Positions 1 to 17,464 are shown, counted from the first letter of the stretch. The stretch: DNA of 64,000 bases from an uncultured virus (IMG/VR IMGVR_UViG_3300028646_000003) (IMGVR_UViG_3300028646_000003:1-64000); one strand, 5' to 3'. A program made the numbers and translations. Notes: generated from the letters alone by a model not told the origin.

Positions 1-309
1 TCATCTTTATTACTACATGATACTATTAAGAATGGATTCGAGGATAGTGGACATACTTTATCTGAGCATCCCTTATTAGCTTGTGATTTCATAGAAAATG
101 TATTTAATAAAAATAATTATAATGAAAAGTGTATAACCATTCAAAAAGAATTAATAAAATATTGCATAAAATCACATATGGGTAAGTGGAACATGGATAA
201 AGAAGAAAAAGAGATTTTGCCAAAACCAAAAGCAGAAATTGAAAAGTTGGTACATTTAGCAGATTACATTGCAAGTAGAAAATATATAAATTTCGGTTTT
301 GAGGTGTAG
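1..309 (+). CDS. HD-domain phosphohydrolase, 3' part (truncated by window start)
   Basis: Frame 1 is open from base 1 (SSLLLHDTIK...EHPLLA...SHMGKW...VHLADYIASRK) to TAG at 307-309. HD motif and C-terminal H-x-A-D present. Missing from the ORF track. Confidence 0.8.
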   Translation, partial: SSLLLHDTIKNGFEDSGHTLSEHPLLACDFIENVFNKNNYNEKCITIQKELIKYCIKSHMGKWNMDKEEKEILPKPKAEIEKLVHLADYIASRKYINFGFEV

Positions 310-313
310 TAAA

Positions 314-481
314 ATGATTAAATTGTTAAAAAATATTAAAGAATTTATGGAGAATTGTAATAAATTAACAGACGATGGAGGAAGATGTTGCTTGGCTTGT
401 AAGAATCGCAATGGATGTCAAGGAATGACTTGTGATTGGGAATTAAAAACTATTGATGAATGGACAGAAACATTTTTATAA
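314..481 (+). CDS. small Cys-rich hypothetical protein
   Basis: ORF 299..481; likely start is ATG 314 after GAGGTG. Confidence 0.55.
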   Translation: MIKLLKNIKEFMENCNKLTDDGGRCCLACKNRNGCQGMTCDWELKTIDEWTETFL

Positions 482-588
482 AAAGGATTATTAGAATTTA
501 TTAATATTAACTGCTCAATTATAAAGTTATGGTAAAAGATATTCTTTAAAAAATAAAAAAGTTATACATTAATTTATTAAAATAGTTG

Positions 589-617
589 TTGACAGTAGGA
601 AGATTTAGGTATAGAAT
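589..617 (+). promoter_or_regulatory. sigmaA-type promoter upstream of omega-RNA/iscB
   Basis: TTGACA(589-594)-17 bp-TAGAAT(612-617), preceded by an inverted AATAAATTAATGT box at 566-578. Confidence 0.7.
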
Positions 618-714
618 AATAAATGTACCAAGTAACAAAAAAACTTATTAAAGATAAATGATAATAAATTAATATGATAAAGATAGAAAGGAGAAATTAA
701 ATAAAAAGTATGTT

Positions 715-969
715 GTCAGTAACCTTACATATTTAATGTGTAAATTAATTTAGAAATAAATGAAATTTATGCTGTCTAGCCTAAGATTTGAAATATGATC
801 TACGTTAAATATAATATCACACCATAAAATGATACCCTAGTTTTATGCAACTGTGTAGGCTCTGTAAACAGTTCTATGAGGTAGGAACAGTCAACCTAGA
901 TTGGAAGTTTAACTTCAAATTATATTTAACATTGGCGAAGGGTAAATAAACTCTAAGGAGGGACGAAAC
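715..969 (+). ncRNA. omega-RNA (HEARO-like) scaffold of IscB
   Basis: Begins GTCAGTAACC and contains the typical blocks TAGCCTAAG, CTACGTT, GATACCCTAG, CTCTGTAAACAGTTCT..GGTAGGAACAGTCAACC and AACATTGGCGAAGGG, directly upstream of iscB. Confidence 0.85.
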
Positions 970-2220
970 TTGAGAGTATTCGTTAAAAATTTAAGAGGAC
1001 AAAACTTAATGCCTTGTTCTCAGAGAAAAGCAAGATTATTATTAAAACAGAATAAAGCAAAGATATATTCTTATAATCCTTTTAGTATACAATTATTAAA
1101 ACAAACAGGCGAATCAATACAAGAATGTAATATAGGTATAAATACTGGATATAGATATATGGGATTTGCAATAACAAGTAGCAATAAAGTTTTAATTAAA
1201 GGAGAAATAGAATTAAGGAACAATATAAAAGAGTTGTTATTTTCTAGAAAAGAATACCGAAGAACTCGTAGAAGTAGAAAAACTAGATATAGACAAGCGA
1301 GATGGAAAAATAGAGCAAGAAAGATAGGATGGTTAGCACCTTCTATACAATCAAAAATAGATAATGAAATATTCTGGGTTAATAAATTAAAATATTTATT
1401 ACCTAATTATAATTTAATAGTTGGCATTGGGAAATTTGATACTCAAAGACTTATAAATCCAGATGTGGATAATAAACATGGTGATTTGTACGGATATGAA
1501 AATGTAAAAGCTTATTTAATAACTAGAGAAAATAATAAATGTCAAATATGTGGGAAAACATATGATGGTTTAGGTTGGAGAATACATCATAAAAAAGAAA
1601 GGAATAAGGGAGGAAGTAATAGAGTTGAAAACTTAGCACTAGTACATGAACAATGTCATAAAGATTTTCATGCAGGGCTAATAAAAAAGAAATTTAGAAA
1701 ACCTAAAGAATATAAAGAGACAACATTTATGAATATATTAAAACAACGAATCATAAGTATATTAAATTGCACTGTTACTTATGGTTATATAACTAAAATT
1801 GATAGACAAAATTTAAAGTTAGACAAGTCTCAGTATAATGATGCGATAGCAATAAGTGGAATAAAAGAAATTAAAGAAAATTGCAATGACATATTATATA
1901 TAAAACAAGCTAGAAAGAAAAAGAGAAGTTTACATGAAGGAACGGCTAGAAAAGGGAGAAAAGAACCTAATAGGCAATCCAAAAGAAATTCTAAGAATAC
2001 TAAATGTTCTCATGGATTTTATTTAAACGATAAAGTTGAAGTGTTTGGTAAAGTTGGGTGGATAAGTGGGTTTGCTGGATATGAATGTTACATAAAAGAT
2101 ATAAGTGATAATTATATAGTTACCCAAAATAAAGCTGGGAAAGGCGTATCTCTTAAACTTTTAAAACTTATAAATCATAATAACAATTGGAAATATACAT
2201 ATAAACAAATTAATATATAA
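970..2220 (+). CDS. iscB: IscB (OMEGA RNA-guided nuclease), RuvC catalytic residues substituted, HNH retained
   Basis: N-terminal (P/N)LMP, RRTRRSRK bridge helix and HNH (CQIC..IHH..GGSN..NL..CH). RuvC motifs read GINTG, IVGIGKFD and SQYNDA. Confidence 0.92.
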   Translation: MRVFVKNLRGQNLMPCSQRKARLLLKQNKAKIYSYNPFSIQLLKQTGESIQECNIGINTGYRYMGFAITSSNKVLIKGEIELRNNIKELLFSRKEYRRTRRSRKTRYRQARWKNRARKIGWLAPSIQSKIDNEIFWVNKLKYLLPNYNLIVGIGKFDTQRLINPDVDNKHGDLYGYENVKAYLITRENNKCQICGKTYDGLGWRIHHKKERNKGGSNRVENLALVHEQCHKDFHAGLIKKKFRKPKEYKETTFMNILKQRIISILNCTVTYGYITKIDRQNLKLDKSQYNDAIAISGIKEIKENCNDILYIKQARKKKRSLHEGTARKGRKEPNRQSKRNSKNTKCSHGFYLNDKVEVFGKVGWISGFAGYECYIKDISDNYIVTQNKAGKGVSLKLLKLINHNNNWKYTYKQINI

Positions 2221-2224
2221 AGTA

Positions 2225-2253
2225 TTGACAAGCCAAACTATAAAGAGTAAAAT
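2225..2253 (+). promoter_or_regulatory. sigmaA-type promoter
   Basis: TTGACA-17 bp-TAAAAT, with AACAAATTAATAT at 2204-2216 and a 5' hairpin GTTGTGGTAGAT/ATTTACCACAAC at 2258-2290. Confidence 0.75.
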
Positions 2254-2303
2254 AAGAGTTGTGGTAGATAATAACACATTTACCACAACATACATAAAAG
2301 GAA

Positions 2304-2450
2304 AATATGCTTTAAAGAGTAGCTAAAACTACTCAAATAGGATAAAGAATGATTTAAGGGTTGATCTCCCCTAAGATTTAAGTAAAGTAGTAATTATTTA
2401 AATCGGAGATGTGCTGAAACGGTAAATTCAGCTATTCTTTAAAGCATATT
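2304..2450 (+). ncRNA. candidate structured ncRNA
   Basis: 21-bp terminal stem (2304-2324 with 2430-2450) enclosing internal hairpins; no ORF; lies downstream of a promoter. Confidence 0.55.
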
Positions 2451-2483
2451 ACATGCTAAATAAATTAATATATAAAGGAGAAA

Positions 2484-2786
2484 ATGTTAATGAGGAATTA
2501 TAAAGAAGAAAGACTAAACAAACTAGAATTACAACCATATAATATTGTAGTAGCTGAAACGTCTGAACCAGATTACGAAATGGGTAGAAAAATATTACTA
2601 GAAAGACTTGAAGGTTTAGAATATGGAGAATACGTTTTATTAGAAGGATATCATTGTAGTTGCTATGATTTTGATGAAACAGAATGGGACGCTATAGTTT
2701 ATACTAAAGAAGAATTATTAAAATTAGCTAATGCAGACTATAATAAAAATGATAAGTTTTGGAAATTAGTAAAAATCGCTCTATAA
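2484..2786 (+). CDS. hypothetical protein
   Basis: 100 aa ORF with AAGGAG RBS. Confidence 0.7.
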   Translation: MLMRNYKEERLNKLELQPYNIVVAETSEPDYEMGRKILLERLEGLEYGEYVLLEGYHCSCYDFDETEWDAIVYTKEELLKLANADYNKNDKFWKLVKIAL

Positions 2787-2888
2787 TCGTTCAGAATCAC
2801 TAAAAACTGAAAAAATTAGAAACTAACACTGAAAATCAATTATAGAGCAAGTTAGAAAAATGGACAAGATTTAAGAAATTCCAAAAAC

Positions 2889-2970
2889 AAGAATGGCTTA
2901 TCTAGGGCGTTACAAAGGTTGAATATCCAAATAAAAGAATAATTTTAACAACTATTCAACAAATTAATGT
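2889..2970 (+). repeat. composite intergenic repeat, copy
   Basis: AAGAATGGCT box, then TAAAA-GAATAA-TTTTA (2932-2947), 10 bp, AACAAATTAAT. Closely similar to 33074-33150. Confidence 0.75.
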
Positions 2971-3124
2971 ATAATAAAGTATTAAAAAGTTAACATTGCA
3001 TTAATGATTAGTCTTGTAAGACTAAAATGCGTACTACAATAAATTAATATATAAAGTAAAATAACAGAGAGAATCAAGTGAGTGAGACTAGCTTAAATTC
3101 AAATTAAGAGGAGAGAATTAAATT

Positions 3125-4405
3125 ATGGCAAAGGAAAAAGAAATCACAATCATCAAAAGGGGTAAAGCAGAATTTAATTTAGTAGGGAAGGCTAAAGTAT
3201 CAGGATTTACATTTAAAACAGATATCGAAAGTGGAAAAGAAGGTTCAGACTGGATTTATAATCAAATGAACTTAGGAGTTGAATGTGGAAAAGAAGGTAC
3301 TATATATGCCGATTTAATGGGTGGTTACGGTTCGGAAAGAGAAAATGTTGTATATGTTCACGGTAAAAAGAAAGATGATAGTGGAAGAAATCAAGATGAT
3401 TTTGAAAATGGATTTAAAATAGATTGGGAAGACAGACTAGATGAAGATAACTTTGATTCAATTGGAGAAAGATGTTTTATCACAGTAGGATTAGAAAAAG
3501 ACGATAAGGATAAAACGGTTTATAAGAAGTTTTTAACACCTTATGATGCTATTCAATATGTAAGTGAAAATTTACAAGATGGTACAGTAATAAATATAAA
3601 AGGAGATCTTAAATATAAACTTTATAAAGATACATATTCAGTGAGTAAAGAAATTAGAAGTATTGCATTATCAAATGCCACAGAAGATAAGTTCAAAGCT
3701 ACATTTACACAAACTATTTTTGTAGAATCAGATGCTATTGGAAAACCTGATAAGGAAACAATGACAATTCCTATAACTGGACACATAATAGATTTTGTTA
3801 AAGAATTAAATGGAGATAAAGTAACTAGAAAAGTTAAAAGAAAAGAAAAAGAAGGTTGTAATTTACCATTAGTAAAAGTATTTGATGTAGAAATCGCCGA
3901 AGAAAAAGAAAACACTATGAGATTCTTAAAGCAATTTAAAACTAAAAGCAAAAAGGTAACCGAAATTACGGTTGAAGGTATATTTACTAAAGGTTCTTTA
4001 AATACAGTCGAAGTTGGAGAAGAAGATATTCCAGATGATATCAAGGAACTTATTGAATTAGGAGTTATTGATAAAGATGAGGTTGTTGGTAAAATGGCAT
4101 TTGCAAATGGTTCTAAAAAACCTGAAAGAATGATAATTAAGAAACCTTTCATATCAATGGTTGAGTCTAATGGTAATAAAATACCTAAAATTGCAAAAGA
4201 AGCAGACAAGTATAATGAAGACGACTTAAATCCTTACTTAATTATAGAAGCTTTAGGTGGCAGAGTTATAAAAGCCGATGAAGAGCCTGTTGGCAATAAT
4301 GATACAGAAGACGAAGAAATTGATACCGATGATATAGATGTAAATAAATTAATGGGCGAACAAGATAATGAAGATGGCGACGAAGATTGGTTAAAAGACC
4401 TATAA
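3125..4405 (+). CDS. phage replication protein, probable ssDNA-binding protein (SPbeta YorF-like position)
   Basis: First gene of the replication operon, with a strongly acidic C-terminal tail (EDGDEDWLKDL). Function inferred from position and tail. Confidence 0.5.
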   Translation: MAKEKEITIIKRGKAEFNLVGKAKVSGFTFKTDIESGKEGSDWIYNQMNLGVECGKEGTIYADLMGGYGSERENVVYVHGKKKDDSGRNQDDFENGFKIDWEDRLDEDNFDSIGERCFITVGLEKDDKDKTVYKKFLTPYDAIQYVSENLQDGTVINIKGDLKYKLYKDTYSVSKEIRSIALSNATEDKFKATFTQTIFVESDAIGKPDKETMTIPITGHIIDFVKELNGDKVTRKVKRKEKEGCNLPLVKVFDVEIAEEKENTMRFLKQFKTKSKKVTEITVEGIFTKGSLNTVEVGEEDIPDDIKELIELGVIDKDEVVGKMAFANGSKKPERMIIKKPFISMVESNGNKIPKIAKEADKYNEDDLNPYLIIEALGGRVIKADEEPVGNNDTEDEEIDTDDIDVNKLMGEQDNEDGDEDWLKDL

Positions 4406-4511
4406 AATTACATATACAAAAGAATTTAAATAAATGAAACCTAGTAAGTATAAATATAATATCTATACTTACTAATATAATAATAAATTAAATATGAAGG
4501 AGATTGATTAA

Positions 4512-5480
4512 ATGTTTAGAAAACCAGCAAAAAGTAAAATAGGTGGAAAATTTTTCGTATATGGATTTTCAGGAGAAGGTAAGAGTTTCTTTGGATTAAC
4601 TTTTCCAAAGATAGGAGCTATAGACTCAGAAACAGGATTAGCTTTCTATGAAGATGAAAATATAAAAATAAATGGTAAAACATATAATAATCTAGCATTT
4701 GTGGATACAACATCTGATTTAGATGAATTAGAAGAAGATTTAGACAATATTATAGAAGGTGATGTTGATATAGAAACGCTTTTAATTGATTCAGAAACAA
4801 AGTTCTATAACACTATGGATATAGGTGCAACAGAAGCTGAAGAAAAGAAAGCTAAGTTAAGTGGGAAATCTGTAGATGCTAGAGCAAAATGGGGTAGAAT
4901 TAAAAATATTAATATGAAATTCCAACAAGCTAAAATTACTGCATCAGCAAAAGGTATTCATATTGTTTCTACAGCACAGGGAGTTGCTATAACTGACAAT
5001 GATACACAAAAGATAATAGGATATAAACCAGATACACATAAATCATTGAAGTTTGATTATGATGTTGTATTAAGATTTTATGTTGAAGAAGATAAAAAAA
5101 CAAAAGAAAGAAGATATTTTGCTGAGGTTATTAAAGATAGAACTCCTGTGACCGAAGTAGGACAAATAATTGAAAATTGTACATATGATGTATGGAAGCC
5201 ATATTTTGATAAAAGAAATGGTGTCGGTTCTGTAACAAGTGGTGCTAATTTTACTAAAGATTTAAAAAATTCAACAGATAGTGTATTAAATAATGCTGAA
5301 CTATCTACTAAACTAGCTAAGGATATAAAAGATTTTATAAGTGAACACAAAACAGAAACTAATATATTAAAACAACTTAAGGCTCTTGCAGATGAATCAG
5401 GTATTGATATGAAAAACTTAGATTTAGAAGAACCTAAGAAATTACAAGAATTTATGACTGCTATTAAAAACATTAAATAA
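4512..5480 (+). CDS. AAA/P-loop ATPase (Sak4/AAA_24-like)
   Basis: Walker A GFSGEGKS, then IDSE and LLIDSET motifs. Confidence 0.75.
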   Translation: MFRKPAKSKIGGKFFVYGFSGEGKSFFGLTFPKIGAIDSETGLAFYEDENIKINGKTYNNLAFVDTTSDLDELEEDLDNIIEGDVDIETLLIDSETKFYNTMDIGATEAEEKKAKLSGKSVDARAKWGRIKNINMKFQQAKITASAKGIHIVSTAQGVAITDNDTQKIIGYKPDTHKSLKFDYDVVLRFYVEEDKKTKERRYFAEVIKDRTPVTEVGQIIENCTYDVWKPYFDKRNGVGSVTSGANFTKDLKNSTDSVLNNAELSTKLAKDIKDFISEHKTETNILKQLKALADESGIDMKNLDLEEPKKLQEFMTAIKNIK

Positions 5481-5487
5481 AAAAGTT

Positions 5488-5514
5488 AATAGGCGAGTTT
5501 AATTCTCGCCTATT
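5488..5514 (+). terminator. hairpin / putative terminator
   Basis: AATAGGCGAG-loop-CTCGCCTATT after the ATPase stop. Confidence 0.55.
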
Positions 5515-5525
5515 CTTATAAAGAG

Positions 5526-6725
5526 GTGAGTAATATGAAAAGATTGACGTTAGAAGATATAAAAATAAGATTATATAATAAAAATAAAAATATAGCTATT
5601 CTTGATGATGTGTATATAAACTGTGATAGTGAATTATCTTGTAAGTGTTTGATTCATAATAATATATGGACTACAACTTGGACTAATCTCAATACTGGAT
5701 ATGGATGCCCAATATGTGCTACAGAGAATAAAATAAATACTCGTAGAAAAAATGCTGTAAAAAATAAAAAATCATTTGCAGATATATATCCACATTTTGT
5801 TAAGTATTTTAAAAACAAAGAAGATGCATACAAATACTCATATGGTTCTCATAAAAAAACTATCATTAAATGCGATATTTGTGGAAAAGAAAAAGAAGTA
5901 ACTATTAAAAGTGTACCAATAAATAGTATTTGCTCTTTTTGTAATGATTTTATTCCTTATACAGAGAAGTTTGTATTTAATCTATTAGAACAATTAGGAA
6001 TTGACTTTGATTTTCATAAAACTTTTGATTGGTCTCAAAACAAAGAATATGATTTTTATATACCTGATTTAAATATTTTAATAGAAGCGAATGGACTTCA
6101 GCATTATGAGGAAAGCTTTATTTCCATTAAAGGAGCAAGGAGTTTAAAAGAAGAAATAGAGAATGATAATTTAAAAGAATATTTAGCATTGCAGAATGGA
6201 ATATTAAAACAAAATTATATAACTATTGATTGTAGACATAGTACATTAGAACACATCAAAAATAGCATATTGAACAATGAAAAAATAACAAGTAAATTTG
6301 ATTTGAGTAATATTGATTGGTTAAAATGTGGCGAGTTTGCATGTAGCAATTTAGTAATAACAATATGCAATTTATATAACAATAAACAAGTAAGTAATTC
6401 GGAATTTATTAAATTCATTCAAAATAAATTTAAAATAGCTTATAAAACAGTTTTAAAATACTTAAAATCTGGAACAGAGTCTAAAATATGTGACTATAAT
6501 CCCAAAGACTCTTATAGAAATAATTGGAAATCTAAAAAAGTTATATGTTTAGATAATATGAAAATTTATGAAAGCGTATCATTTTTAAATAACATTTTCT
6601 TAGATGAATTCGGAGTTGTTAGCACCATTAGTGGAATATCTCACGCTTGCCGAAATAAGAAAGAATATAAAAATTTAACTTTTTTGTATTTAGAAGATTA
6701 TTATAGCAGGGAGGAATTGATATGA
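5526..6725 (+). CDS. putative free-standing homing endonuclease (Zn ribbons plus PD-(D/E)XK/Vsr-like domain)
   Basis: CPIC, CDIC and CSFC ribbons; EYDFYIPDLNILIEANGLQHY motif; C-terminal NUMOD1-like KKVICL..YES. Confidence 0.7.
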   Translation: MSNMKRLTLEDIKIRLYNKNKNIAILDDVYINCDSELSCKCLIHNNIWTTTWTNLNTGYGCPICATENKINTRRKNAVKNKKSFADIYPHFVKYFKNKEDAYKYSYGSHKKTIIKCDICGKEKEVTIKSVPINSICSFCNDFIPYTEKFVFNLLEQLGIDFDFHKTFDWSQNKEYDFYIPDLNILIEANGLQHYEESFISIKGARSLKEEIENDNLKEYLALQNGILKQNYITIDCRHSTLEHIKNSILNNEKITSKFDLSNIDWLKCGEFACSNLVITICNLYNNKQVSNSEFIKFIQNKFKIAYKTVLKYLKSGTESKICDYNPKDSYRNNWKSKKVICLDNMKIYESVSFLNNIFLDEFGVVSTISGISHACRNKKEYKNLTFLYLEDYYSREELI

Positions 6726-7177
6726 GTAAAATGTCCTTACAAGAAAAAGAAGAATGGAATGAGTTGTATGAATATGTGAAGAAAGAAATACTTAGATATG
6801 ACGAAAATATGAAACTTCCCAAAAATTTAATCCTCCGAATACTTGGTCTAAAAAACGGAAAATTCATAGCAAATAAGAAAACTAAAGCATTAGGAGATTA
6901 TTCATTTAAGATAATATTAATGACTTTTAAAATAAATAAATATGAAATAGTAAATGCACTAGCAGATAAAAGTAAATTTAAAGATGAAAGTCATATGATA
7001 AATTATATGATGGCAATTATTGAAAAGAAAATTAATGATACATATAGTAGATTAAATAGATTAGAACAATCACAAATAAAAGGGGAGAATTTAGAAATAA
7101 CTGAATCTGAAAATAAAGCCGAATACAAACAAAAAACAAAAGAAATCAAAAATAGCAGATTAAAGGAGTTATTATGA
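6722..7177 (+). CDS. conserved phage replication-region protein (YorH-like position)
   Basis: 151 aa, directly before the helicase. Confidence 0.55.
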   Translation: MSKMSLQEKEEWNELYEYVKKEILRYDENMKLPKNLILRILGLKNGKFIANKKTKALGDYSFKIILMTFKINKYEIVNALADKSKFKDESHMINYMMAIIEKKINDTYSRLNRLEQSQIKGENLEITESENKAEYKQKTKEIKNSRLKELL

Positions 7178-7178
7178 T

Positions 7179-8690
7179 ATGGTTAAGAAACCAAGTACAA
7201 CTAAAAAAACTGATGTTTCTAAAATCCCTGATGAAGAAATAAAAGCCATAAAAAAGGTGAAAGAATATAAGTTAATATGTGAATCCAACATCGTTTCTAT
7301 ATTATGGAAAGATGCAGACTTGTATTTTGACTATGACTCTTTAACATTATCGCATTTTACATATAATGAATGGAAAGTTTATTTCCAAATAGGACAAGAT
7401 GTAGTTGTAAAAGAGAAAAAGCCAATTCTAGACGAAATAACAATTAATTTATATTTAGAAAAACACAATAAGTTAAAAGTTAAATATGATGAATACGGTG
7501 GATTTACAACAATAGAAAAAGCTAAAGAGTATGTTAAAGTAAAAAATATTGAAGGATATATAGCAGAATTAAATAAATGGAATACAGTTATTAACTTAGT
7601 TAAAAATAGATTTCCAATTGCTGATAGACTAAGTGAATATGTAGATATGACATCTGAAGAAATCTATGATGAATATGAAGCAATTTTGAACCACATATTT
7701 ATAAATGTAGAAGGAGACGATGAAACTTTTACATTAGCTGACGGAATATATGATTTAATAGACGAATTAGATGAAGGTTTAGCAATAGGTTTACCCTTAC
7801 ATAATTCACCATTATTGACGCACGAAACTGGAGGGAACTTAGGTGGAAATATCACATTAATGGGAGGATTATCTGGGGCAGGTAAAACAACTATGTCAAG
7901 AACATTATTACTACCATCTATATTTGAGAATAATGAGAAGATATTAATAATGATTAATGAAGAAGGTAGAAAAAAGTGGCAAAGAGAAATGTTGATATGG
8001 GTAGCAAATAATATTTATAAAAAAGACATTCAAAAATACAAGCTAAGAGATGGTAAATTTGATGATGAATTTAAAACATTTCTAAGAGAAAAATGTGCAA
8101 AGTGGATAGTAGATAGAGGAGATCAAATTATATTAAAGCCTTTTAAAAAATATTCAACAGATAAAGCTATTAAATGTATTAAAAAATATGCTCATTTAGG
8201 TATTAAATATATGATGCTAGACACCTATAAAGCTGACTCAGATACAAAAGATACTGAAGCATTTTGGTTTAATCTTCAACAAAATATGGTTAAGATTTAT
8301 GACACTATAAAAGAAGAAGCACTAAATGTACATATATGGATAACATTTCAATTAGCAAAATCAAGTAGCAAACAAAGATGTTATACGCAAGAAAATATAG
8401 GTTTAGCAAAGAATATTATAGATGTAGCTTCAACTTGTATAATGATAAGAAAATTATTTGAAGACGAACTCGAAGGTGGTAAAAATGAATTAAAAGTATT
8501 TAAAACATCTGGGAAAAGTGGGAAAACAAAAATACCAGTACCATTGGATAAGAATAAGCATTATCAGCTATTATTTGTTGTAAAAAATAGAGAAGGTGGA
8601 TGTAACGAATATGCTATAGTTGTCGAACATGATATGAGTAAAAATATTTATAATGAAGTTGGAATTTGCGTAGTACCAGTAGATTTTTGA
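7179..8690 (+). CDS. DnaB-like replicative helicase
   Basis: Walker A GLSGAGKT, YMMLDTYK, ITFQL and VVKNREG motifs. Confidence 0.85.
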   Translation: MVKKPSTTKKTDVSKIPDEEIKAIKKVKEYKLICESNIVSILWKDADLYFDYDSLTLSHFTYNEWKVYFQIGQDVVVKEKKPILDEITINLYLEKHNKLKVKYDEYGGFTTIEKAKEYVKVKNIEGYIAELNKWNTVINLVKNRFPIADRLSEYVDMTSEEIYDEYEAILNHIFINVEGDDETFTLADGIYDLIDELDEGLAIGLPLHNSPLLTHETGGNLGGNITLMGGLSGAGKTTMSRTLLLPSIFENNEKILIMINEEGRKKWQREMLIWVANNIYKKDIQKYKLRDGKFDDEFKTFLREKCAKWIVDRGDQIILKPFKKYSTDKAIKCIKKYAHLGIKYMMLDTYKADSDTKDTEAFWFNLQQNMVKIYDTIKEEALNVHIWITFQLAKSSSKQRCYTQENIGLAKNIIDVASTCIMIRKLFEDELEGGKNELKVFKTSGKSGKTKIPVPLDKNKHYQLLFVVKNREGGCNEYAIVVEHDMSKNIYNEVGICVVPVDF

Positions 8691-8699
8691 TAAAATGAG

Positions 8700-9782
8700 G
8701 TGATAAAAATTAATGGTTATGAATTAAAACAGTATATAATAGAAAACAATAAAATTGAATATGTTTTAGAGGAAATAGGATGTACACACATTAAATCATA
8801 TACTAAAGAATATAGGTGTAAAACACCAACACATGATAATTCTACATCTACATCTATAAAAAAAGAATCTCTTTCAATAACTATTTATGGAAAAGATGAT
8901 AAAATAACAGGGGATATATACACTTTAGTTATGGATATTAAATCTTTAATATTTCCTAAAGCTGTTAAATATATACATGAAATATTAGGATTAAAATACT
9001 ATGGAATAAATACTAAATCAGAAACCAAAGAAAAAGTTGATATATTAAAAGTATTTAAAAAGGCACTTAAAAAATATAAAGATTATTATGACGAAGAATT
9101 AAAAGTATTAAGTGAAGATATAACTAAAGAGTATGAACAAATGCCATATATAGAATGGGTTAAAGAAGGAATACTTCCTTGTACTCAACAAACATTCGGA
9201 ATAGGATATAGTGCTAAAAGCAATAGGGTAGTTATACCTCATAGATATTGGTGTGGAAATGAAAATGATTATGTAGGACTTATAGGAAGAACCTTAATTA
9301 AAAATTACGATATGTTTGATATACCGAAGTATTTTCCATTATATAAATATCCTAAAAGTCAAAATCTATATGGATTACAAGAGAATTATAAAGGAATACA
9401 AGAAAAGGGATATACAGTTGTATATGAAAGCGAAAAGTCTACACTTAAACGCCATAGTAAAAAAGACTATACAGGAGTATCATTGTTTGGTCATGAATTA
9501 TCTATAGAACAAGCAAAGATACTTATAAGCCTAAATGTAGATATAATAATTGCTTTAGATAAAGATATTTCTTTAGATTTTGTAAGAAGTATATGTGAAA
9601 TGTTTTATGGAATCAGAAATGTATACTATATTTATGATGAATATGGATTGTTAGGAGAAAAAGAAAGTCCAGCAGACAAACATGAAAAAATCTATAAAGT
9701 GTTATTCAATCGAAAAGTCAAATATAACGAAAATGAACATGAAGAATATTTAAAATACTTAGAATCAAAGGAGATTAAATAA
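8700..9782 (+). CDS. DNA primase (TOPRIM); start may be ATT 8709
   Basis: Motifs RVVIP..GRT, LYGL, VVYESEKS and IIIALDKD; follows the helicase. Confidence 0.8.
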   Translation: MIKINGYELKQYIIENNKIEYVLEEIGCTHIKSYTKEYRCKTPTHDNSTSTSIKKESLSITIYGKDDKITGDIYTLVMDIKSLIFPKAVKYIHEILGLKYYGINTKSETKEKVDILKVFKKALKKYKDYYDEELKVLSEDITKEYEQMPYIEWVKEGILPCTQQTFGIGYSAKSNRVVIPHRYWCGNENDYVGLIGRTLIKNYDMFDIPKYFPLYKYPKSQNLYGLQENYKGIQEKGYTVVYESEKSTLKRHSKKDYTGVSLFGHELSIEQAKILISLNVDIIIALDKDISLDFVRSICEMFYGIRNVYYIYDEYGLLGEKESPADKHEKIYKVLFNRKVKYNENEHEEYLKYLESKEIK

Positions 9783-10807
9783 TGGGTTATTACAAGGAAG
9801 ATAAATTTAATTATTATATTAAAATAATTAAAGATAATAATTCAGATATAAAACTATTTAATAATTCAAAAGACACTTTAACCTTTGAAGAATATAAAGG
9901 CGTAAAATCTTATTATTATATAAAGTGTGATATTTGTGGAACATATGTTAGGAAAACATTAGATAATACTGTTAACAATAAATGTTATACATGTAACGAT
10001 TGTGCTAGTAAGATAACAGGAGATAAAAATAAATTATCATTTAAAAAAGCCATAAAAAGAGTTGAGTTATTAAAATCTGAAATAAGATTAGATCTATCTC
10101 ATTCTATAGTAGAAAAAGAATGGAATAAAGTTATAGATAAATATTGGTTTAAATGTACAAAGTGTGGTCAATGGATGTTTAGAGAATATAGATTATTTGT
10201 TGATAAGGGTGGAAATATTTGTGGAGATTGTGGTGGACAAACCTCATGGGATATAGTTTCTGCCAAAACCAAAATAAAAGAATTAGGAAGTGAATTAATA
10301 AATGATGAATGGTTGGGAGTTGACCATAGATATATGTTTAGATGTATTAAATGTGGTGGTTTAACCAATAAAACTTTTGATAAATTTGTTAATAGCAATC
10401 AGCGTTTATGTAATTCATGTTCTGGATCAAAAGGAGAAATTATTATACAAAAGACATTAGAAGAACATAACATTAAATTTATTCCACAATATAGATTCGA
10501 TGATTTAAGAGGTGAGAATAAACAATTTTTAAAATTTGATTTTGGTATTTTGGATTATAATGATAAATTAAAAAATCTAATAGAATATCAAGGTGAGCAA
10601 CATTATTTTCCAGTAGATTTTGCAAATAGAGGTGAAGAATGGGCTAAGGAGCAATTTCAAAAAAATCAATATAGAGATAATATGAAAAGAGAATATGTAT
10701 CAATTAAAAATATAGAACTATTAGAAATTCCATACTGGGATTACAATAATATAAAAAAGATATTAGGAGGTTTATTATGGGAGAAAGAAAATCAAAAGAG
10801 TATTTAA
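9782..10807 (+). CDS. putative homing endonuclease (multiple CxxC plus DUF2726/Vsr-like nuclease)
   Basis: Six CxxC pairs, then SKGE..FIPQYRF..LKFDF..LIEYQGEQH..D..K..LLEIPYW. Confidence 0.7.
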   Translation: MGYYKEDKFNYYIKIIKDNNSDIKLFNNSKDTLTFEEYKGVKSYYYIKCDICGTYVRKTLDNTVNNKCYTCNDCASKITGDKNKLSFKKAIKRVELLKSEIRLDLSHSIVEKEWNKVIDKYWFKCTKCGQWMFREYRLFVDKGGNICGDCGGQTSWDIVSAKTKIKELGSELINDEWLGVDHRYMFRCIKCGGLTNKTFDKFVNSNQRLCNSCSGSKGEIIIQKTLEEHNIKFIPQYRFDDLRGENKQFLKFDFGILDYNDKLKNLIEYQGEQHYFPVDFANRGEEWAKEQFQKNQYRDNMKREYVSIKNIELLEIPYWDYNNIKKILGGLLWEKENQKSI

Positions 10808-12003
10808 ATAAATTAAAAAATAAACTAGGAGTAGATATAATTTATTCATGGTCAAGATATCATTCTTACTGTAATGATAGTTATAGTTATTTATTAAAAT
10901 ATATAAAACACGAGAAAGAAGTAAAAAAGGATGGTATATATGGAGTTTCAGGTAATGTATGCCACGATATCATAGAACGTTATTATCTAGGTGAATTAAA
11001 ATATGAAGATATGCTAAATGAATATGAAGAAAAATTGTTTGAAATGAATGCAATGGAATTAAAATATAATAGAATTGACGAAGAAGCAAATAAAAAGATA
11101 GCAGATAAATATGAAAATAATATAAGATTGTTTTTTCAACAATATAAACCTATTGAAAGTAAAATGGTATTAGAACAGTTTGTAACAATTAAAGTAGGTA
11201 AGTTCTATTTTCAAGGTTATATAGATTTTGTACATAGAGATACAGAAGGTAATTACATAATAGAAGATTTTAAAACTTCAACTATTTACACAGGAGCTAA
11301 AAAAATAGCCGAAGGTGGACAATTAATACTATATTCAGAAAGTCTTATACAAAAAGGAATCCCTTTAGAAAAGATTAAGATTAGATGGAATTTTCTTAAA
11401 TATTGTAGCATTGAAAGTGACTTGTTTAGTATTGATAAGGAAACAAAAAAGAATAAAACAAAAAGTAAAAATTGTTCAAGAGCAACATGGGTAAAAGAAA
11501 GTGAAGGGAATATAAAAAAATGGTTAACCAAAAGTGAGATGTATGATGAATTAGAAATTGAAGATATGATGCAAACTTGTATTGAAAATAATAATTTAGA
11601 AACACTTCCACAAGATATACAAGATAGATTTAGAATGGAAGATTGTTATGTTTACTTAGAATTAACACAAGAAATGATAGATGATTTAAAAGATAATATA
11701 ATCAATACTTTAGAAGATATAGAAATTAAAACTGCTAAGACTAAAGATATATTAAAAACATTAGAAAGTTTAGACAAAATAAAAGATAAACAACAAATTA
11801 AAGAGTTAAATCAAGAAATAGATGAAATGTTTTGGAGTGAAATTGATGCAAGTAAAGAATATTACTACTATAATCTAATGCCTTATACAAGACAACAGCA
11901 CAAACCTTTTGATGAATACTTAAAGGACGTTAATATGTTTGTAGAAGATAGCTTTGATAAAGAAGAAATAGGTGACGGCTTAGATTGGTTAAATGATTTG
12001 TAA
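10777..12003 (+). CDS. PD-(D/E)XK (RecB-family) nuclease
   Basis: SWSR..GNVCHDIIE..E..GYIDF..IEDFKT..QLILY. Confidence 0.8.
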   Translation: MGERKSKEYLNKLKNKLGVDIIYSWSRYHSYCNDSYSYLLKYIKHEKEVKKDGIYGVSGNVCHDIIERYYLGELKYEDMLNEYEEKLFEMNAMELKYNRIDEEANKKIADKYENNIRLFFQQYKPIESKMVLEQFVTIKVGKFYFQGYIDFVHRDTEGNYIIEDFKTSTIYTGAKKIAEGGQLILYSESLIQKGIPLEKIKIRWNFLKYCSIESDLFSIDKETKKNKTKSKNCSRATWVKESEGNIKKWLTKSEMYDELEIEDMMQTCIENNNLETLPQDIQDRFRMEDCYVYLELTQEMIDDLKDNIINTLEDIEIKTAKTKDILKTLESLDKIKDKQQIKELNQEIDEMFWSEIDASKEYYYYNLMPYTRQQHKPFDEYLKDVNMFVEDSFDKEEIGDGLDWLNDL

Positions 12004-12021
12004 GAAAGAGGTTGTTTAAAT

Positions 12022-12783
12022 ATGAGAAAAACTAATAGAATTGGAGAAAATAGTATAAATAAACAAGGATTAAAAATGAAAATAATTGAATATAGAAGGA
12101 ATGATGATATTACAGTAAAGTTTGAAGATGATTATGCTTGCGAAAGCCAATATGTACTTTTTCAAAAAGGTTCTATTAAGAATCCTTACTTTAGAGAAAC
12201 ACAAGGAGTTGGATATATAGGAGAAGGCAAATATAAACCAAGTATTAATAATAAATTAACTATTCAATATAAATATTGGATGTCTATGTTTTATAGGTGT
12301 TATAACGAAGACTATCATAAAAAAGAAAATACTTATATAGATTGTTTTGTTTGCGAAGAGTGGCATAATTATCAATCATTTGGAAAATGGTTTGATGAAA
12401 ATTACTATGAAATAGAAAATGAAGTTATGCAAATAGACAAAGACATACTAATTAAGGGAAATAAAATATATAGTCCAAAGAATTGTGTATTTGTTCCTAG
12501 ATCAATAAATAATTTATTTGTAAAAAACGATAAAGTTAGAGGAAAATATCCTATTGGTGTTACTGAAAGAAACAATGGATATCAAGCAAGATTAAATAAA
12601 AATACAAAAGACATCAAACTAAGAATAAGCTTAGGTGTTTTTGATACTCCACAACAAGCATTTAATGCTTATAAAATAGCTAAAGAGAATTATATTAAAA
12701 AAGTTGCTAATGATTATAAGGGCAAAATACCAAACAATTTATATAATGCAATGATAAATTATAAAGTTGAAATGACAGATTAA
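12022..12783 (+). CDS. putative HNH-like homing endonuclease with AP2-like tail
   Basis: W..M..RCY, VCEEWHNYQSF and IDKDILIKGNKIYSP.NCVFVP..IN motifs; C-terminal YQAR..LGVFDTPQQA. Confidence 0.7.
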   Translation: MRKTNRIGENSINKQGLKMKIIEYRRNDDITVKFEDDYACESQYVLFQKGSIKNPYFRETQGVGYIGEGKYKPSINNKLTIQYKYWMSMFYRCYNEDYHKKENTYIDCFVCEEWHNYQSFGKWFDENYYEIENEVMQIDKDILIKGNKIYSPKNCVFVPRSINNLFVKNDKVRGKYPIGVTERNNGYQARLNKNTKDIKLRISLGVFDTPQQAFNAYKIAKENYIKKVANDYKGKIPNNLYNAMINYKVEMTD

Positions 12784-12814
12784 AAAATTTTATAAAAGAG
12801 AGTGGTGAAATTTT

Positions 12815-14095
12815 ATGGAAGAAAACTACATTGTACATCATTTACATGATGACACATCTAACTGTAATGGATATGCTGATTCATGTACTAAATATGAAGA
12901 ATATATTAAATTAGCAAAAAAATGTGGAATGAAAGCAATAGCATTCAGTAATCATGGTGGTATATATGATTGGATTAAAAAGAAACAATACTGTGATAAA
13001 AATGGAATTAAATATATACATGGAGTTGAATTGTATTTATGTATTAATCTTCAGGACAATACTAGAGGATATCATATAGGATTGTATGGAAAGAATTGGG
13101 AAGGAGTTAAAGAACTAAATACTCTTATGTCAATGGCGACTTCAAAAGGAGTAAAAGAGGATAAATCAGATAGACACATGTATTATAATCCTAGAATATC
13201 ATTTGAAGAACTCATGAATACAAGTGATAATATTATAATTACTACTGCTTGTTTAGCTTCTCCACTATGTAAATTAGGCAATAAAGATATATTAAATGAC
13301 GTAGAAGGTAATGAAACCGAAGAAGGTAGAAAACAATATGAATATAATTTACAAAAAAGAGATGAATTATTACAATGGTTATCTAAACACAATGATAGAT
13401 GTTTTTTAGAGATTCAATATCATAATTGTAATAGTCAAATAGAATTTAATAGTCAATTATATGAATGGTCTAAATTATATAATATACCACTAATAAGTGG
13501 AACAGATACTCATTCATCTAATAAATATAAAGCCGAATGTAGAACAGTTTTACAAAAAGCTAAAGATAGTTTTTATGGAGAAGAAGATGAGTTTGATTTA
13601 ATATGGAAAACATATGATGAATTAGTAGAATCATTTAAAATACAAAATTCCTTACCATTAGAAGTTGTACTTGAAGCAATTAATAATACAAATGTTTTAT
13701 CTAATATGGTAGAAGAGTTTACATTAGATAAAACATTTAAATACCCAAATTTATATGGTAATAATTCAAAATTATTATGGAAAAATAGAATATTTAAAAT
13801 GTTAAAAGATAAAAAGGAACGCAATATTATAGATGTTTCTAAATTAGAAGAATACAAAAAAGCAATATTAGAAGAATTTGATGTAATGTCTAAGTTAGGA
13901 ATGGAAAGTTTTATGATGTTTATGTCAGAACTTATGGAGTGGGCTAGAAATAGTGATATACATTCTAGCCCATGTAGGGGAAGCGTAGGAGGAAGCATTA
14001 TAGCATATATAACTGATATAATTACTGTAGATCCTATTAAGTGGCACACAGTATTTTCAAGATTTTGTAATGCAGATAGAATAAGTCTTGGTGAT
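12815..14095 (+). CDS. dnaE: DNA polymerase III alpha subunit, exon 1
   Basis: PHP domain (HHLH, NHG, HGVELY, GTDTH), then RGSVGGS and FSRFCN..RISLGD; interrupted just before the catalytic DxD. Confidence 0.92.
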
Positions 14096-15354
14096 TAAAA
14101 TAACAAAATAGTTCTAAATAATAAATAAATATGATATAATAAATTAAAATAAAGGAGGTGAGAATTATGAATCAAGAGTATAAAATGAAAATTTCCAAGG
14201 AAACAATTATTGATATATATTATAATGAATATATTAATGGGACTTCTGCTTTAAAATTAGAAGAAAAATATGAATTAAGTAAAGGATATTTATATAGATG
14301 GTTTAATAAACTTGATTTACCCTTAAGAGATAATAGTGTTAATTCTAAACAATACAGTTTTAATGAAAACTACTTTGAAAACATAGATACCGAAGATAAA
14401 GCATATTGGTTAGGTTTTGTATATGCTGATGGCTTTATAACATCTAAAAGAAAACACGCTAATAGAAGTTTAGGAATTTCTTTAGGTATTAAAGACGAAA
14501 GTCATTTGCAAAAACTAAATTATTGTTTAAATAGCAATACACCAGTAAATAAATATATAGAAACTGCTGGATTTGGGATAGGAAATAAATATTGTAGAGT
14601 TATATATGTAAGTAAGAAATTAACAAATGATTTAATAAAACATGGTGTATATGAAAATAAAACTGATATAATAACATCTCCTAATACAATTCCTTATAAA
14701 TATATAAAAGATTTTATTAGAGGATATTTCGACGGAGACGGAAGTATTTGGAAACAAGATAGTAATACACAAGTAAATATTGGTTTCGTTGGAACTAATG
14801 ACTTGTTGCAGTTTATTATGAAGTATTTATTAGATAATAATGCTATATTAAGAGAATATCCTTTGAATAAAAGAAAATCTGAACAAATAGTTAGTAATTT
14901 TAAATTTGGTGGAAATTATAATTCGTTTAGATTTTTAGATTTTATATACAAGGACTCAAATATTTATTTAAATAGAAAGTATCATATTTATTTAGAATTA
15001 AAAGAACACATTGATAGTCACCCTATACAGTAATGTATAGTATAAAAAATTCGGTGAACTTATAAGTATAAGGTGTATAATCAACGAATAGTAATGCTAG
15101 GAAATGAGTATTAATGATTATGCTAACAGGGGAAGCCTTAACGTAAAGACGATGGTAATCCTGTGCCAAGCTTGTAGAGAAATCTACTTGAAGGTCAAAC
15201 GACTAAAATGAGTTGGAATACAACTCTAAGAGGATTAAAGCATGGTGAAAGTCCAAATCCGTAGTGCCGAACTCCTATTTATATAGGATGAAGATATAGT
15301 CTACTCCGACTCTTAATTGAGTGTTAAAGTATTAGGAAACTAACGGTATCAAGG
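14096..15354 (+). mobile_element. group I intron in dnaE
   Basis: 5' exon ends GGTGAT and pairs with GTCACC (15017-15022, U.G at the splice site). Core elements AATCCTGTGCCAAG, AACGACTA and GATATAGTCT are present. Terminal G is 15354. Splicing restores ..SLGD-IDEDF.. Confidence 0.88.
14167..15033 (+). CDS. intron-encoded double-motif LAGLIDADG homing endonuclease
   Basis: AYWLGFVYADG and DFIRGYFDGDG motifs; RBS AAGGAGGT before ATG 14167. Confidence 0.9.
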   Translation: MNQEYKMKISKETIIDIYYNEYINGTSALKLEEKYELSKGYLYRWFNKLDLPLRDNSVNSKQYSFNENYFENIDTEDKAYWLGFVYADGFITSKRKHANRSLGISLGIKDESHLQKLNYCLNSNTPVNKYIETAGFGIGNKYCRVIYVSKKLTNDLIKHGVYENKTDIITSPNTIPYKYIKDFIRGYFDGDGSIWKQDSNTQVNIGFVGTNDLLQFIMKYLLDNNAILREYPLNKRKSEQIVSNFKFGGNYNSFRFLDFIYKDSNIYLNRKYHIYLELKEHIDSHPIQ

Positions 15355-17439
15355 ATTGATGAAGACTTTGCTCCAAAAGATAGAATAAAAGTATATAAGT
15401 ATATCATAGAAAGATTTGGAAATAAGAATGTATCATATATATTATCACTTAGTACTATTCAAGATAGAGGTAGTATTGATGTATTAGCCAAAGGATTAAA
15501 TTATAAAGACTTAGATTTAGTTAAACAGATTAAAAATGAATTTGATAATATCTTCGATGAGTATTCTAAAATAATACAAGAAGAAGTTAACTTGGAAGAA
15601 TTAGACAACGCAACTTCTAAATCACCTAATTTTGATGATTACAAATTATATATAAATGTAATTAGAAATAAAGAAAAGTTAAAAAGAGTTAAAGAATTAA
15701 AAACGTTATGGGATACATTAAGAGAAGATAATAAAGAATTATTCTATTACTTTGATGGAATAAAAGGAACAGTTATAGCCAAAGGAAATCATCCTTCTGG
15801 AATGATAGGTAGTCCAATAACTCTATTTGATAATATGGGTGTATTTTATAAAGGAGGAGATGAAGATTTTCCTGTTTCATTTTGTGCTATGAAGGCAGTA
15901 GATTCATTGAATTATGTAAAGTTTGATATATTAGGACTGAAAACTATAGGTGTAATTCAAGATACATATAAATTATTAAATAAAAAATGGGAAGAAGCAC
16001 ATGAAATTAATTGGGACGATGATAATGTGTGGAGTGATATGTTAATTAGTAATGCTGGAATATTTCAATTCGAAGGAGATTATGCATTTGATTTATTATC
16101 TAAATTTAAACCACATGCAATAAACGATATGTCATTAGTAAATGCAAGTCTTAGACCATCAGGAAAGTCTTATAGAAATAGATTAATTAGTGGGGAATTT
16201 AATAAAAATCCATCTGAAATAATAGATAAGTTATTAGAGGCTAATAAAGGATTTTTGGTATTTCAAGAAGATTCGATTGCATTTTTACAAGAAATATGTG
16301 GCTTTAGTGGTTCTTTAGCCGATACTACAAGAAGAGCTATAGGAAAAAAAGACTTAGAATTACTAAAAGAACAACTCCCAAAAATATTAGAAGGTTATTG
16401 TAATAAATCAGATCAACCAAGAGAAATAGCTGAAAAAGAAGCAAAACAGTTTATACAAATAATTTCAGATTCCTCGGAATATCAATTTGGATATAATCAT
16501 AGCACAGGATATTCAATGAATGGTTATATGTGTGCAAGACTAAGATATTATTATCCATTAGAGTATACTACTGCATATTTAAATAATGCTGAAGACCAAG
16601 CTGATATAGATAATGGAATAGCCCTTGCTAAAGCTAAAAATATAAATATACAAAATCCTAAGTTTAGATATTCTAAAGGTGAATACATGTGTGATAAAGA
16701 AACAAATACAATTTATAAAGGTGTTGGATCAATTAAATATTTAAATGAAACATGTGCAAATCAATTATATGAATTAAAAAACAATGCCTATAATACTTTT
16801 ATAGATTTATTAAAAGATATAAAAGAAAAAGTAGATATAAATTCAAGACAATTAACAGCTTTGATTTTATTAGATTATTTTACCGAATTCGGTAAATCTA
16901 AAAAGTTATTAGAAGTATATAACAAATACACTGATTTAAGTAGCAGAAAACAATTCAAAAAAGTTGATTTAATAACAATGGGACTAACAGAGGATATTAT
17001 AAAAAGATATGCTAAAAAAGAAACAGAAAAGATATTTAAAGAAGTTGATGTTGAATCTTTGATAAATGAACTCATAGAAAATATAGAAAACAAAGACGTA
17101 CCTTTAAAAGAAAAAATATCTGCCGAAATAGAGTATTTGGGATATCCGATAACAAAAGTAGAAAATGATAGTTTATATTATGTTATAAAAATAGATGAAT
17201 TTAAAAATAAGAAGTCAATAACAAGATATCTAACAATGTACGATTTACATACAAATGATTTAATAAAATATAAACTATCTGATTTCTTATATTTTTATGA
17301 TAATCCAATTGAGGAAAAGGATATTGTGCAAATAACTAGTGAATCTAAAAAGCCTAAAAAGCATAAAGATGATAACGGAAATTGGAAAGTTGTGCCTAAT
17401 GAATTTAATCTTTGTATAGACTCATGGGTATGTTATTAA
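15355..17439 (+). CDS. dnaE: DNA polymerase III alpha subunit, exon 2
   Basis: Open from ATT GAT GAA GAC at 15355, in frame with ORF 15592. Contains HPSG, VKFDILGL, FQF, RP, FQE and FGYNHSTGY. Spliced product is about 1121 aa. Confidence 0.92.
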   Translation: MDEDFAPKDRIKVYKYIIERFGNKNVSYILSLSTIQDRGSIDVLAKGLNYKDLDLVKQIKNEFDNIFDEYSKIIQEEVNLEELDNATSKSPNFDDYKLYINVIRNKEKLKRVKELKTLWDTLREDNKELFYYFDGIKGTVIAKGNHPSGMIGSPITLFDNMGVFYKGGDEDFPVSFCAMKAVDSLNYVKFDILGLKTIGVIQDTYKLLNKKWEEAHEINWDDDNVWSDMLISNAGIFQFEGDYAFDLLSKFKPHAINDMSLVNASLRPSGKSYRNRLISGEFNKNPSEIIDKLLEANKGFLVFQEDSIAFLQEICGFSGSLADTTRRAIGKKDLELLKEQLPKILEGYCNKSDQPREIAEKEAKQFIQIISDSSEYQFGYNHSTGYSMNGYMCARLRYYYPLEYTTAYLNNAEDQADIDNGIALAKAKNINIQNPKFRYSKGEYMCDKETNTIYKGVGSIKYLNETCANQLYELKNNAYNTFIDLLKDIKEKVDINSRQLTALILLDYFTEFGKSKKLLEVYNKYTDLSSRKQFKKVDLITMGLTEDIIKRYAKKETEKIFKEVDVESLINELIENIENKDVPLKEKISAEIEYLGYPITKVENDSLYYVIKIDEFKNKKSITRYLTMYDLHTNDLIKYKLSDFLYFYDNPIEEKDIVQITSESKKPKKHKDDNGNWKVVPNEFNLCIDSWVCY

Positions 17440-17464
17440 ATAAAATAAAAAGGAATGTGATTAA

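Follow-up and report, generated by a model that had tools for sequence, protein, structure and literature searches.

The first 64 kb of the uncultured virus IMGVR_UViG_3300028646_000003, a 130,085-base entry in IMG/VR, make up the stretch of DNA analyzed here (called the window in what follows), and they carry a gene for the RNA-guided nuclease IscB, the ancestor of Cas9, in which the RuvC active site is predicted to be dead, the HNH nuclease domain is intact, and the omega RNA is retained directly upstream. We consider it about an even proposition (probability of roughly 0.5) that this IscB-omega RNA module has become fixed in the phage and acts as an RNA-guided target-strand nickase serving homing or inter-phage competition. 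Homing or competition is favored because an exact match to the guide lies in sister phages that have no IscB, and an RNA-guided nick in those phages is favored because nicking HNH enzymes of phages drive their own inheritance and homing genes crowd the locus. The 130-kb record has a G+C content of 27% and a CheckV completeness estimate of 74%; contig L003 matches 7,217 bases of it at 100% identity and continues for 2,057 further bases upstream, and the record is therefore a fragment. The nearest named phage is Clostridium phage c-st (57.8% amino acid identity in a comparison of RecD-like helicases), no near-identical phages were found in INPHARED, and sampled words from window positions 540 to 2500 (1,961 bases) were present in 23 listed peat metagenome runs. 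The host genome of the module is a large c-st-like, Clostridium-type phage from peat, with no tRNA genes present in the window.

The iscB gene starts with TTG behind a ribosome-binding site (AAGGAGG, 955 to 961), and its whole product matches the NCBIfam family guided_IscB (NF040563) at 296.1 bits, above the cut-off of 175. The Pfam family RRXRR (PF14239), which spans the N-terminal PLMP/RuvC-I region and the arginine-rich bridge helix, is recognized at residues 3 to 168 (1.6e-52), and an HNH domain (PF01844, 4.2e-9) is inserted in RuvC. Solved IscB structures rank first among the fold matches to an AlphaFold2 model of the protein (predicted local distance difference test score, 80.6), with 8csz_D (9e-24), 9liq, and 9k30 at the top of the Foldseek results; the template modeling scores are only ~0.45, as expected because a multidomain protein was modeled without its RNA. 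The IsrB structure 8dmb is matched in sequence and in fold as well.

Catalytic positions were assigned by phmmer alignment to solved IscBs (OgeuIscB, 7xht and 7utn; TbaIscB, 9k30), which pairs the window motifs GINTG, LIVGIGKF, and KSQYNDA with GIDPG, VVLELNRF, and KDHYLDA, respectively. Instead of the D-E-H-D signature of RuvC, the window protein reads N58-G152-Q288-D291, with the fourth residue retained, and its RuvC active site is predicted to have been lost through D58N, E152G, and H288Q. The catalytic and zinc residues of HNH are intact in the window protein and in two relatives, P0002 and P0123. The sequence-only reading of this DNA had described an uninterrupted 416-residue IscB with its omega RNA, had placed N58, G152, and Q288 at RuvC catalytic positions, and had called H207, N221, and H230 of HNH intact; the NCBIfam, Pfam, and Rfam HEARO scores bear out the first point, the alignment to solved IscBs and to 122 homologues the second, and the third holds and extends to the zinc residues. 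That RuvC still cuts through other residues is hardly credible. D291 is there to speak for it, yet only this one of the four catalytic residues survives, glycine has taken the place of one of the other three, P0002 lacks even D291, and, by the account of engineered IscB given in PMC12918029, a nickase is made with a lone Asp-to-Ala substitution at the first site.

In the alignment of near homologues, 119 of 122 read D-E-H-D, the three exceptions being the window protein (N-G-Q-D), P0002 (N-G-Q-N, with N replacing D291), and P0123 (D-G-H-D). P0002 is full length and identical to the window protein at 343 of 414 residues (83%), with one in-frame indel of two amino acids. Its DNA, an 11,465-base Logan contig, turned up neither in IMG/VR nor among 80 loci retained from a metagenome scan. 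The two form a clade in a tree of 42 rows (Shimodaira-Hasegawa approximate likelihood ratio test support, 100) that is nested within RuvC-active IscBs and has the RuvC-active P0003 as its sister (support, 99); the stem of the clade measures 0.15 and each of its tips 0.12, equal to the median tip length. On the simplest reading, the N58, G152, and Q288 substitutions arose once, before the window and P0002 lineages split. P0123, one of the three members of the active sister cluster of P0003, carries E152G by itself, which may mean that the RuvC-II glutamate was lost twice independently or that the polymorphism is a shared one.

A wider survey of the family covered 150 representatives at 50% identity, 122 of them spanning all four sites. 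The D-E-H-D signature of RuvC is complete in 112 of these, and the other 10 depart from it; the first Asp is replaced and HNH is intact or nearly so in 4 of the 10, and alignment error may account for some of the other deviations. IscBs predicted to be RuvC dead and HNH live therefore do not stand alone but recur within the family. The idea that RuvC loss is a typical trait of phage IscBs was rejected, as the five other phage-borne copies (L002, L151 to L153, and CST143 of phage c-st) read D/E/H/D in five of five cases. CST143 itself (450 amino acids; Clostridium phage c-st 132487 to 136491, L154) is RuvC intact and adjoins a truncated OrfA transposase gene, and we therefore regard it as an ordinary copy of the insertion sequence (IS) type. 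A 24-mer from the omega RNA core finds three distant phage IscBs, 36 to 38% identical and RuvC intact. Comparison of four runs at 80% likeness yielded only 120- to 240-base pieces of further relatives, none of which covers the catalytic codons; a 240-base contig from run X8 begins one codon past Q288. Short contigs from runs X15, X24, and X8, 82 to 90% identical to window positions 890 to 1058 and 1834 to 1955, show that further relatives of the window IscB exist in peat and in one wastewater run (X24, guessed to be an RNA run, which holds three short pieces of a relative). One relative contig starts with ATG instead of TTG (970 T>A) and also carries R9K and G10E.

Retention of the gene after inactivation is indicated because the second lineage, P0002, has the same N/G/Q state. 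When the window gene was mutated neutrally to a difference of 71 amino acids (~99 substitutions; 2,000 runs, indels ignored), a mean of 7.1 stop codons accumulated, and stop-free runs made up 0.001 of the 2,000. Neutral decay of the window and P0002 frames appears unlikely on this basis (P = 0.001 for both being open). Retention is also favored by the window protein having kept 97 of 109 family-conserved columns.

The omega RNA lies directly upstream of iscB on the same strand, where the HEARO model matches at 90.1 bits (gathering score, 83; E value, 3.7e-18). A consensus built by RNAalifold with 13 relatives contains 42 pairs, 24 of which show compensatory changes; 37 of the 42 can form in the window RNA, compared with 34 to 41 in the relatives, and compensatory changes are also seen in the window RNA relative to L004. 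In 12 multicopy Bacillus elements, scaffold base 1 is exactly where conservation sets in, and in the window the 16 nucleotides immediately 5' of this base form the guide, AAATAAAAAGTATGTT. The sequence-only reading had envisaged a fixed guide at about 695 to 714. It appears instead to be an ordinary flank-derived guide at 699 to 714, not a newly fixed regulatory one, with homology to the sister-phage contig L139 ending at scaffold base 1. No copies of the guide occur elsewhere in the 130-kb record at up to 2 mismatches, and the sole match in the carrier is the guide-encoding copy itself, followed by the scaffold. Three exact matches in IMG/VR to a 20-mer form of the guide were judged to be due to chance (unrelated coding sequence for LNKKYV, with no phage homology).

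The module is no longer transposable because it has neither a TnpA nor a far IS end. A search for the Y1 transposase (TnpA, PF01797) gave 0 matches in the 130-kb record, estimated to be 74% complete, compared with 6 of 14 control genomes, and the record holds one IscB and one HEARO. In the Bacillus set, 11 of 12 copies remain conserved until ~100 bases beyond the stop codon, ending at ...ACGTTAAA, and closer relatives have a similar end of 30 to 60 conserved bases. A far IS end with a hairpin after the stop is absent in the window, where phage homology begins at codon 412: a 22-base segment shared with L139 (X, spanning codons 412 to 416, the stop codon, and 4 further bases) is followed directly by promoter P2. 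The IscB insert is flanked by a direct repeat of ~20 bases, of which X is the downstream copy (2203 to 2224) and X' the upstream one (666 to 685). P0002 ends in YKTN and a stop, which would equal encoding by X DNA with one extra A, and the junction between iscB and phage DNA therefore probably predates the split between the window and P0002 lineages.

The module sits between two promoters, P1 and P2, directly behind one of only two strong sigma-70-type promoters in the record: TTGACA-N17-TANAAT sites occur only at P1 and P2 in 130 kb (Markov controls, 0.46 +/- 0.64). Transcription from the predicted promoter P1 would cover the leader, guide, omega RNA, and iscB. Three structural claims made earlier from the sequence alone are in line with these results. 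The lack of tnpA and of a recognizable right end agrees with the PF01797 search and with phage homology from codon 412; the stop codon was said to run straight into a phage promoter, and P2 does follow the 22-base phage segment; and the promoter proposed at 589 to 617 matches the consensus at 11 of 12 positions, is one of two such sites, and is conserved in L139. The coordinates of these features are collected in Table 1.

Table 1. Features of the IscB locus in the window (positions counted from the first base of the window)
Feature	Position	Strand	Description
P1 (TTGACA-17-TAGAAT)	589..617	+	11/12 consensus match; L139 counterpart at 4606-4634, both hexamers conserved
X' AAATTAATATGATAAAGATA	666..685	+	Upstream copy of ~20-nucleotide direct repeat; resembles window 2203-2224 and L139 4682-4703
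Guide AAATAAAAAGTATGTT	699..714	+	16 nucleotides, immediately 5' of omega RNA scaffold
Omega RNA scaffold (Rfam HEARO, RF02033)	715..950	+	Full model, positions 1-211
iscB	970..2220	+	416 amino acids; three of four RuvC catalytic residues replaced, HNH intact
Codon N58 (AAT)	1141..1143	+	RuvC-I Asp position; D in 119/122 homologues
Codon G152 (GGC)	1423..1425	+	RuvC-II Glu position; aligned to E of VVLELNRF in OgeuIscB
HNH core	1540..1659	+	C191, C194, H206, H207, N221, C229, and H230 all kept
Codons Q288 (CAG) to D291 (GAT)	1831..1842	+	RuvC-III; His replaced by Gln, Asp kept
X	2203..2224	+	22 bases identical to L139 4682-4703; junction of iscB and phage DNA
P2 (TTGACA-17-TAAAAT)	2225..2253	+	Native phage promoter for downstream genes; L139 counterpart at 4705-4733

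Two sister-phage contigs, L139 and L140, are 85 to 92% identical to the window at the nucleotide level in long aligned stretches of flanking genes. Both have the two promoters in tandem and no IscB; close relatives thus differ in whether iscB occupies this locus. The exact 16-nucleotide guide occurs at L139 4861 to 4876 and at L140 911 to 926, in the same intergenic region, and an exact match was seen in 0 of 2,000 shuffles of L139. The L139 copy lies between P2 and the next gene; AGAAA precedes it in the window and L139 alike, and the homology is exact over the 16 nucleotides and stops at the first scaffold base. The candidate recognition site is therefore present in the IscB-less genomes and in the carrier only as the guide-encoding copy. 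Peat run X15 contains contigs identical to the window iscB beside a 380-base contig that joins position 639 to 2199, with only 22 bases on the short side of the joint; this contig is the IscB-less arrangement, and both alleles are thus found in one run. As for further alleles of the locus, a 24-mer from P1 finds only the L139 and L140 contigs.

Some side features of this locus in L139 are worth recording. Four bases past the target, L139 (4877 to 4909) has GTCAACTCAAC, a sequence similar to the 5' consensus of the omega RNA (GTCAACTACCC), and TTAATGTGT is common to this segment and to the window scaffold at a similar distance; a lost element may have left this segment behind, or the likeness may be due to chance. 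The open reading frame (ORF) of 100 amino acids that follows the IscB locus (2484 to 2786) has an unrelated ORF of 235 amino acids in its place in L139 (4961 to 5668). Upstream of P1, too, the window and L139 have different genes, and the region is therefore a mosaic.

In the reading that we favor, a target-strand nickase serving homing or competition among phages, P1, a strong phage promoter, would drive transcription of the module early in infection. The resulting ribonucleoprotein, loaded with the 16-nucleotide guide from the flank, would be able to cut with HNH only. It may bind the matching site in co-infecting sister phages without the module, where HNH would cut only the strand paired with the guide. 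Replication or recombination would turn the nick into a break, and repair from the IscB-bearing genome would then either copy the module or leave the rival handicapped. Nicking, use of an L139-type target, and benefit to the phage are each steps that the module may perform, as deduced from sequence comparison.

In its most specific form, this reading makes the module a naturally occurring homing endonuclease that would nick under RNA guidance. A phage would have captured an IscB, which would have lost its transposon ends and RuvC, come under the strongest early promoter of the phage, and nick IscB-less sisters during co-infection. We advance this form tentatively, as it falls well short of even odds. 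Under it, RuvC loss would be adaptive rather than decay (E152G also occurs alone, in P0123); the likely reason would be that a 16-nucleotide AT-rich guide in a genome of 27% G+C makes off-target double-strand breaks costly. If true, the module and neighboring markers would be driven into sister phages, or the sisters would be excluded.

Several observations weigh against the nickase reading. Among 56 active homologues, 109 columns are at least 95% conserved, and the active proteins deviate at a mean of 1.0 and a maximum of 5 of these; the window protein deviates at 12 and P0002 at 14, which is relaxation. Differences between the window protein and P0002 fall in 11 of the 109 conserved columns and in 60 of the 305 others, a ratio of 0.51 (Fisher p = 0.026), compared with 0 to 0.13 for equally diverged active pairs (among the 40 of 83 pairs listed), so that constraint on the two proteins appears clearly relaxed. 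The N/G/Q state is known in two lineages only. The HEARO score of the window is the lowest of the complete matches scored, as the 18 complete matches in 18 related loci range from 93.7 to 142.6 bits and all lie above it. Because the guide is flank DNA, its match in the sister phages is by descent and is not independent proof of targeting. The L139 target is followed directly by TTATG. In 11 of 12 Bacillus copies, by contrast, TTAAA or CTAAA marks the limit of conservation past the far end, and a (T)TAAA motif resembling these lies no more than ~60 bases beyond the stop codon in several closer relatives; this mismatch is a weak point. Finally, L139 is not a simple empty site, as the target block and the P2 block stand in opposite order in the window and in L139.

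These same observations bear on whether the module is a dying selfish element, a pseudogene in the making that has lost both RuvC and transposition and has no function for the phage. Relaxed constraint at conserved columns, the low HEARO score, the apparently stepwise loss of residues from DGHD (P0123) through NGQD (window) to NGQN (P0002), and the lack of a far end and of TnpA would all fit such a history. Full-length frames in two lineages 17% apart do not (P = 0.001 under neutrality, with indels ignored), nor do the in-frame position of the sole indel between the window and P0002, the preserved omega RNA pairs, and the conservative nature of the conserved-column changes outside the RuvC neighborhood. 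The two proteins differ at 11 conserved columns: six are R/K, S/T, or I/V swaps, four (166 to 171) cluster directly after RuvC-II, and one is D291. Our reading is that relaxation is probably domain specific, with the remaining protein under selection, and we consider a dying element distinctly improbable. The earlier proposal of selection without ORF decay accordingly stands in part: the frames are open in two lineages (P = 0.001), and constraint is partly relaxed.

The placement of the L139 target bears on a further alternative, an RNA-guided binder or regulator like TldR or dCas that binds without productive cutting and blocks transcription; candidate sites would be the leader downstream of P2 in sister phages or a host gene. 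The target (4861 to 4876) lies between P2 (4705 to 4733) and the next gene start (4998), where a roadblock would matter, and loss of RuvC with the guide RNA kept parallels the TnpB-to-TldR transition as outlined in 10.1101/2023.11.30.569447. All HNH catalytic and zinc residues are nevertheless kept in both lineages, which a pure binder would not need, and within the 130 kb of the phage itself the guide has no other match, even when 2 mismatches are allowed. We hold a binder to be unlikely, if less so than a dying element. Of the two roles put forward from the sequence alone, nickase or DNA-binding regulator, the first remains plausible with HNH intact and the second, in its TldR-like form, found no support.

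IscB and Cas9 systems have their guide-encoding DNA followed by scaffold and not by a target-adjacent motif. This counts against a nick that serves the phage's own DNA metabolism, such as recombination-dependent replication started at the guide-encoding copy. That copy is the only genomic match, and the module heads the replication and recombination module, both of which speak for such a role; sister phages, for their part, manage without the module, and we rate this alternative as very improbable, only slightly above a RuvC that remains active.

Around the IscB locus, the replication module contains several HNH homing endonuclease genes and is crowded with genes of the homing type. A free-standing HNH homing endonuclease gene at 5526 to 6725 (phrog_559, phrog_9084) is absent from L139, where window positions 5532 and 6721 map to 8434 and 8438, only 3 bases apart. 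The DNA polymerase is encoded in two ORFs (12815 to 14098 and 15592 to 17439, both phrog_405) with an endonuclease gene between them (14158 to 15033, phrog_4645), and more HNH endonuclease genes lie at 9782 to 10807 and 12022 to 12783. Neither Cas12 nor a CRISPR array was seen in the scanned ORFs of window positions 1 to 19,696.

Upstream of the ORF at 2484 to 2786 is a structured leader (2300 to 2483) with an inverted repeat (~2306 to 2320 with 2437 to 2452), a conserved hairpin (GAGTAGCTAAAACTACTC), and a terminator-like hairpin (2413 to 2432); it has no Rfam match at E values up to 1. Contig depth in peat runs is 47 to 157 for bases 2409 to 2470 and 2 to 17 for iscB, and because the former so far exceeds the latter, many phages there share the leader element.

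The accepted role of OMEGA nucleases is to help transposons survive, and nuclease-dead descendants of TnpB are known to have been domesticated. Compared with canonical IscBs of the IS200/IS605 type, the window module has the RuvC D/E/H residues replaced, lacks TnpA and a far end, is present as a single copy, and is fixed in a phage between two promoters. With OgeuIscB (7xht, 7utn, 8csz) it shares the domain order, a HEARO-type omega RNA directly upstream, and a flank-derived guide 5' of the scaffold. IsrB (8dmb) is also a natural relative that cuts a single strand and has an omega RNA; it lacks HNH and cuts with RuvC, whereas in the window IscB RuvC is dead and HNH remains, so that the opposite strand would be cut. 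TldR, too, is a transposon-derived RNA-guided protein that lost RuvC catalysis and was retained with its guide RNA. It derives from TnpB and has no nuclease left, in contrast to the IscB lineage and the one intact nuclease of the window protein, and a TldR-like promoter target for the window guide has no match in the phage's own 130 kb.

The closest precedent in print is a natural IscB from a Cas12-linked locus with RuvC inactivated and HNH active (Altae-Tran et al. 2023, PMC10910872), which, in the one-paragraph note that concerns it, its authors likewise predict to be a nickase. That IscB is part of a locus with Cas12 and a helix-turn-helix gene, as described there, whereas the window IscB stands alone in a phage. 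It is the only case of a natural RuvC-dead IscB that we found in print, and full-text literature searches, subscription-only papers aside, turned up no paper on a phage-borne one. The novelty presumed at the outset is lower with this case in print and with 10 of 122 family representatives deviating. The protein type is known; what is new is that it has been fixed in a phage, that there is evidence of its retention, and that sister phages contain a natural target.

The likeness to nicking homing endonucleases of phages is close in genetic behavior. In T4, deletion of the HNH motif of MobE abolished nicking and reduced high-frequency inheritance, according to the results reported for that enzyme (PMC2790892), and I-HmuI, I-HmuII, I-BasI, and I-PfoP3I are listed as further phage HNH nicking enzymes that drive their own inheritance (PMC3428280). 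As these accounts describe them, such genes are present or absent between sister phages, have their targets near the insertion point in genomes without the gene, need no more than a nick to bias inheritance, and are expressed from an upstream phage promoter, and the window module is alike in these respects. The known enzymes read DNA with protein, whereas the window IscB would use a guide RNA.

This case unites a defined natural guide, a sister-phage target from the same habitat type, both alleles in one run, and a second lineage, and it opens to direct test whether an IscB that cuts with HNH alone can serve phages as an RNA-guided nickase for homing or for excluding one another. RuvC-inactive OgeuIscB (D60A) has been used as a working nickase, as stated in PMC12918029, and the engineered IscB nickases of base editors would have a natural counterpart in the window IscB.

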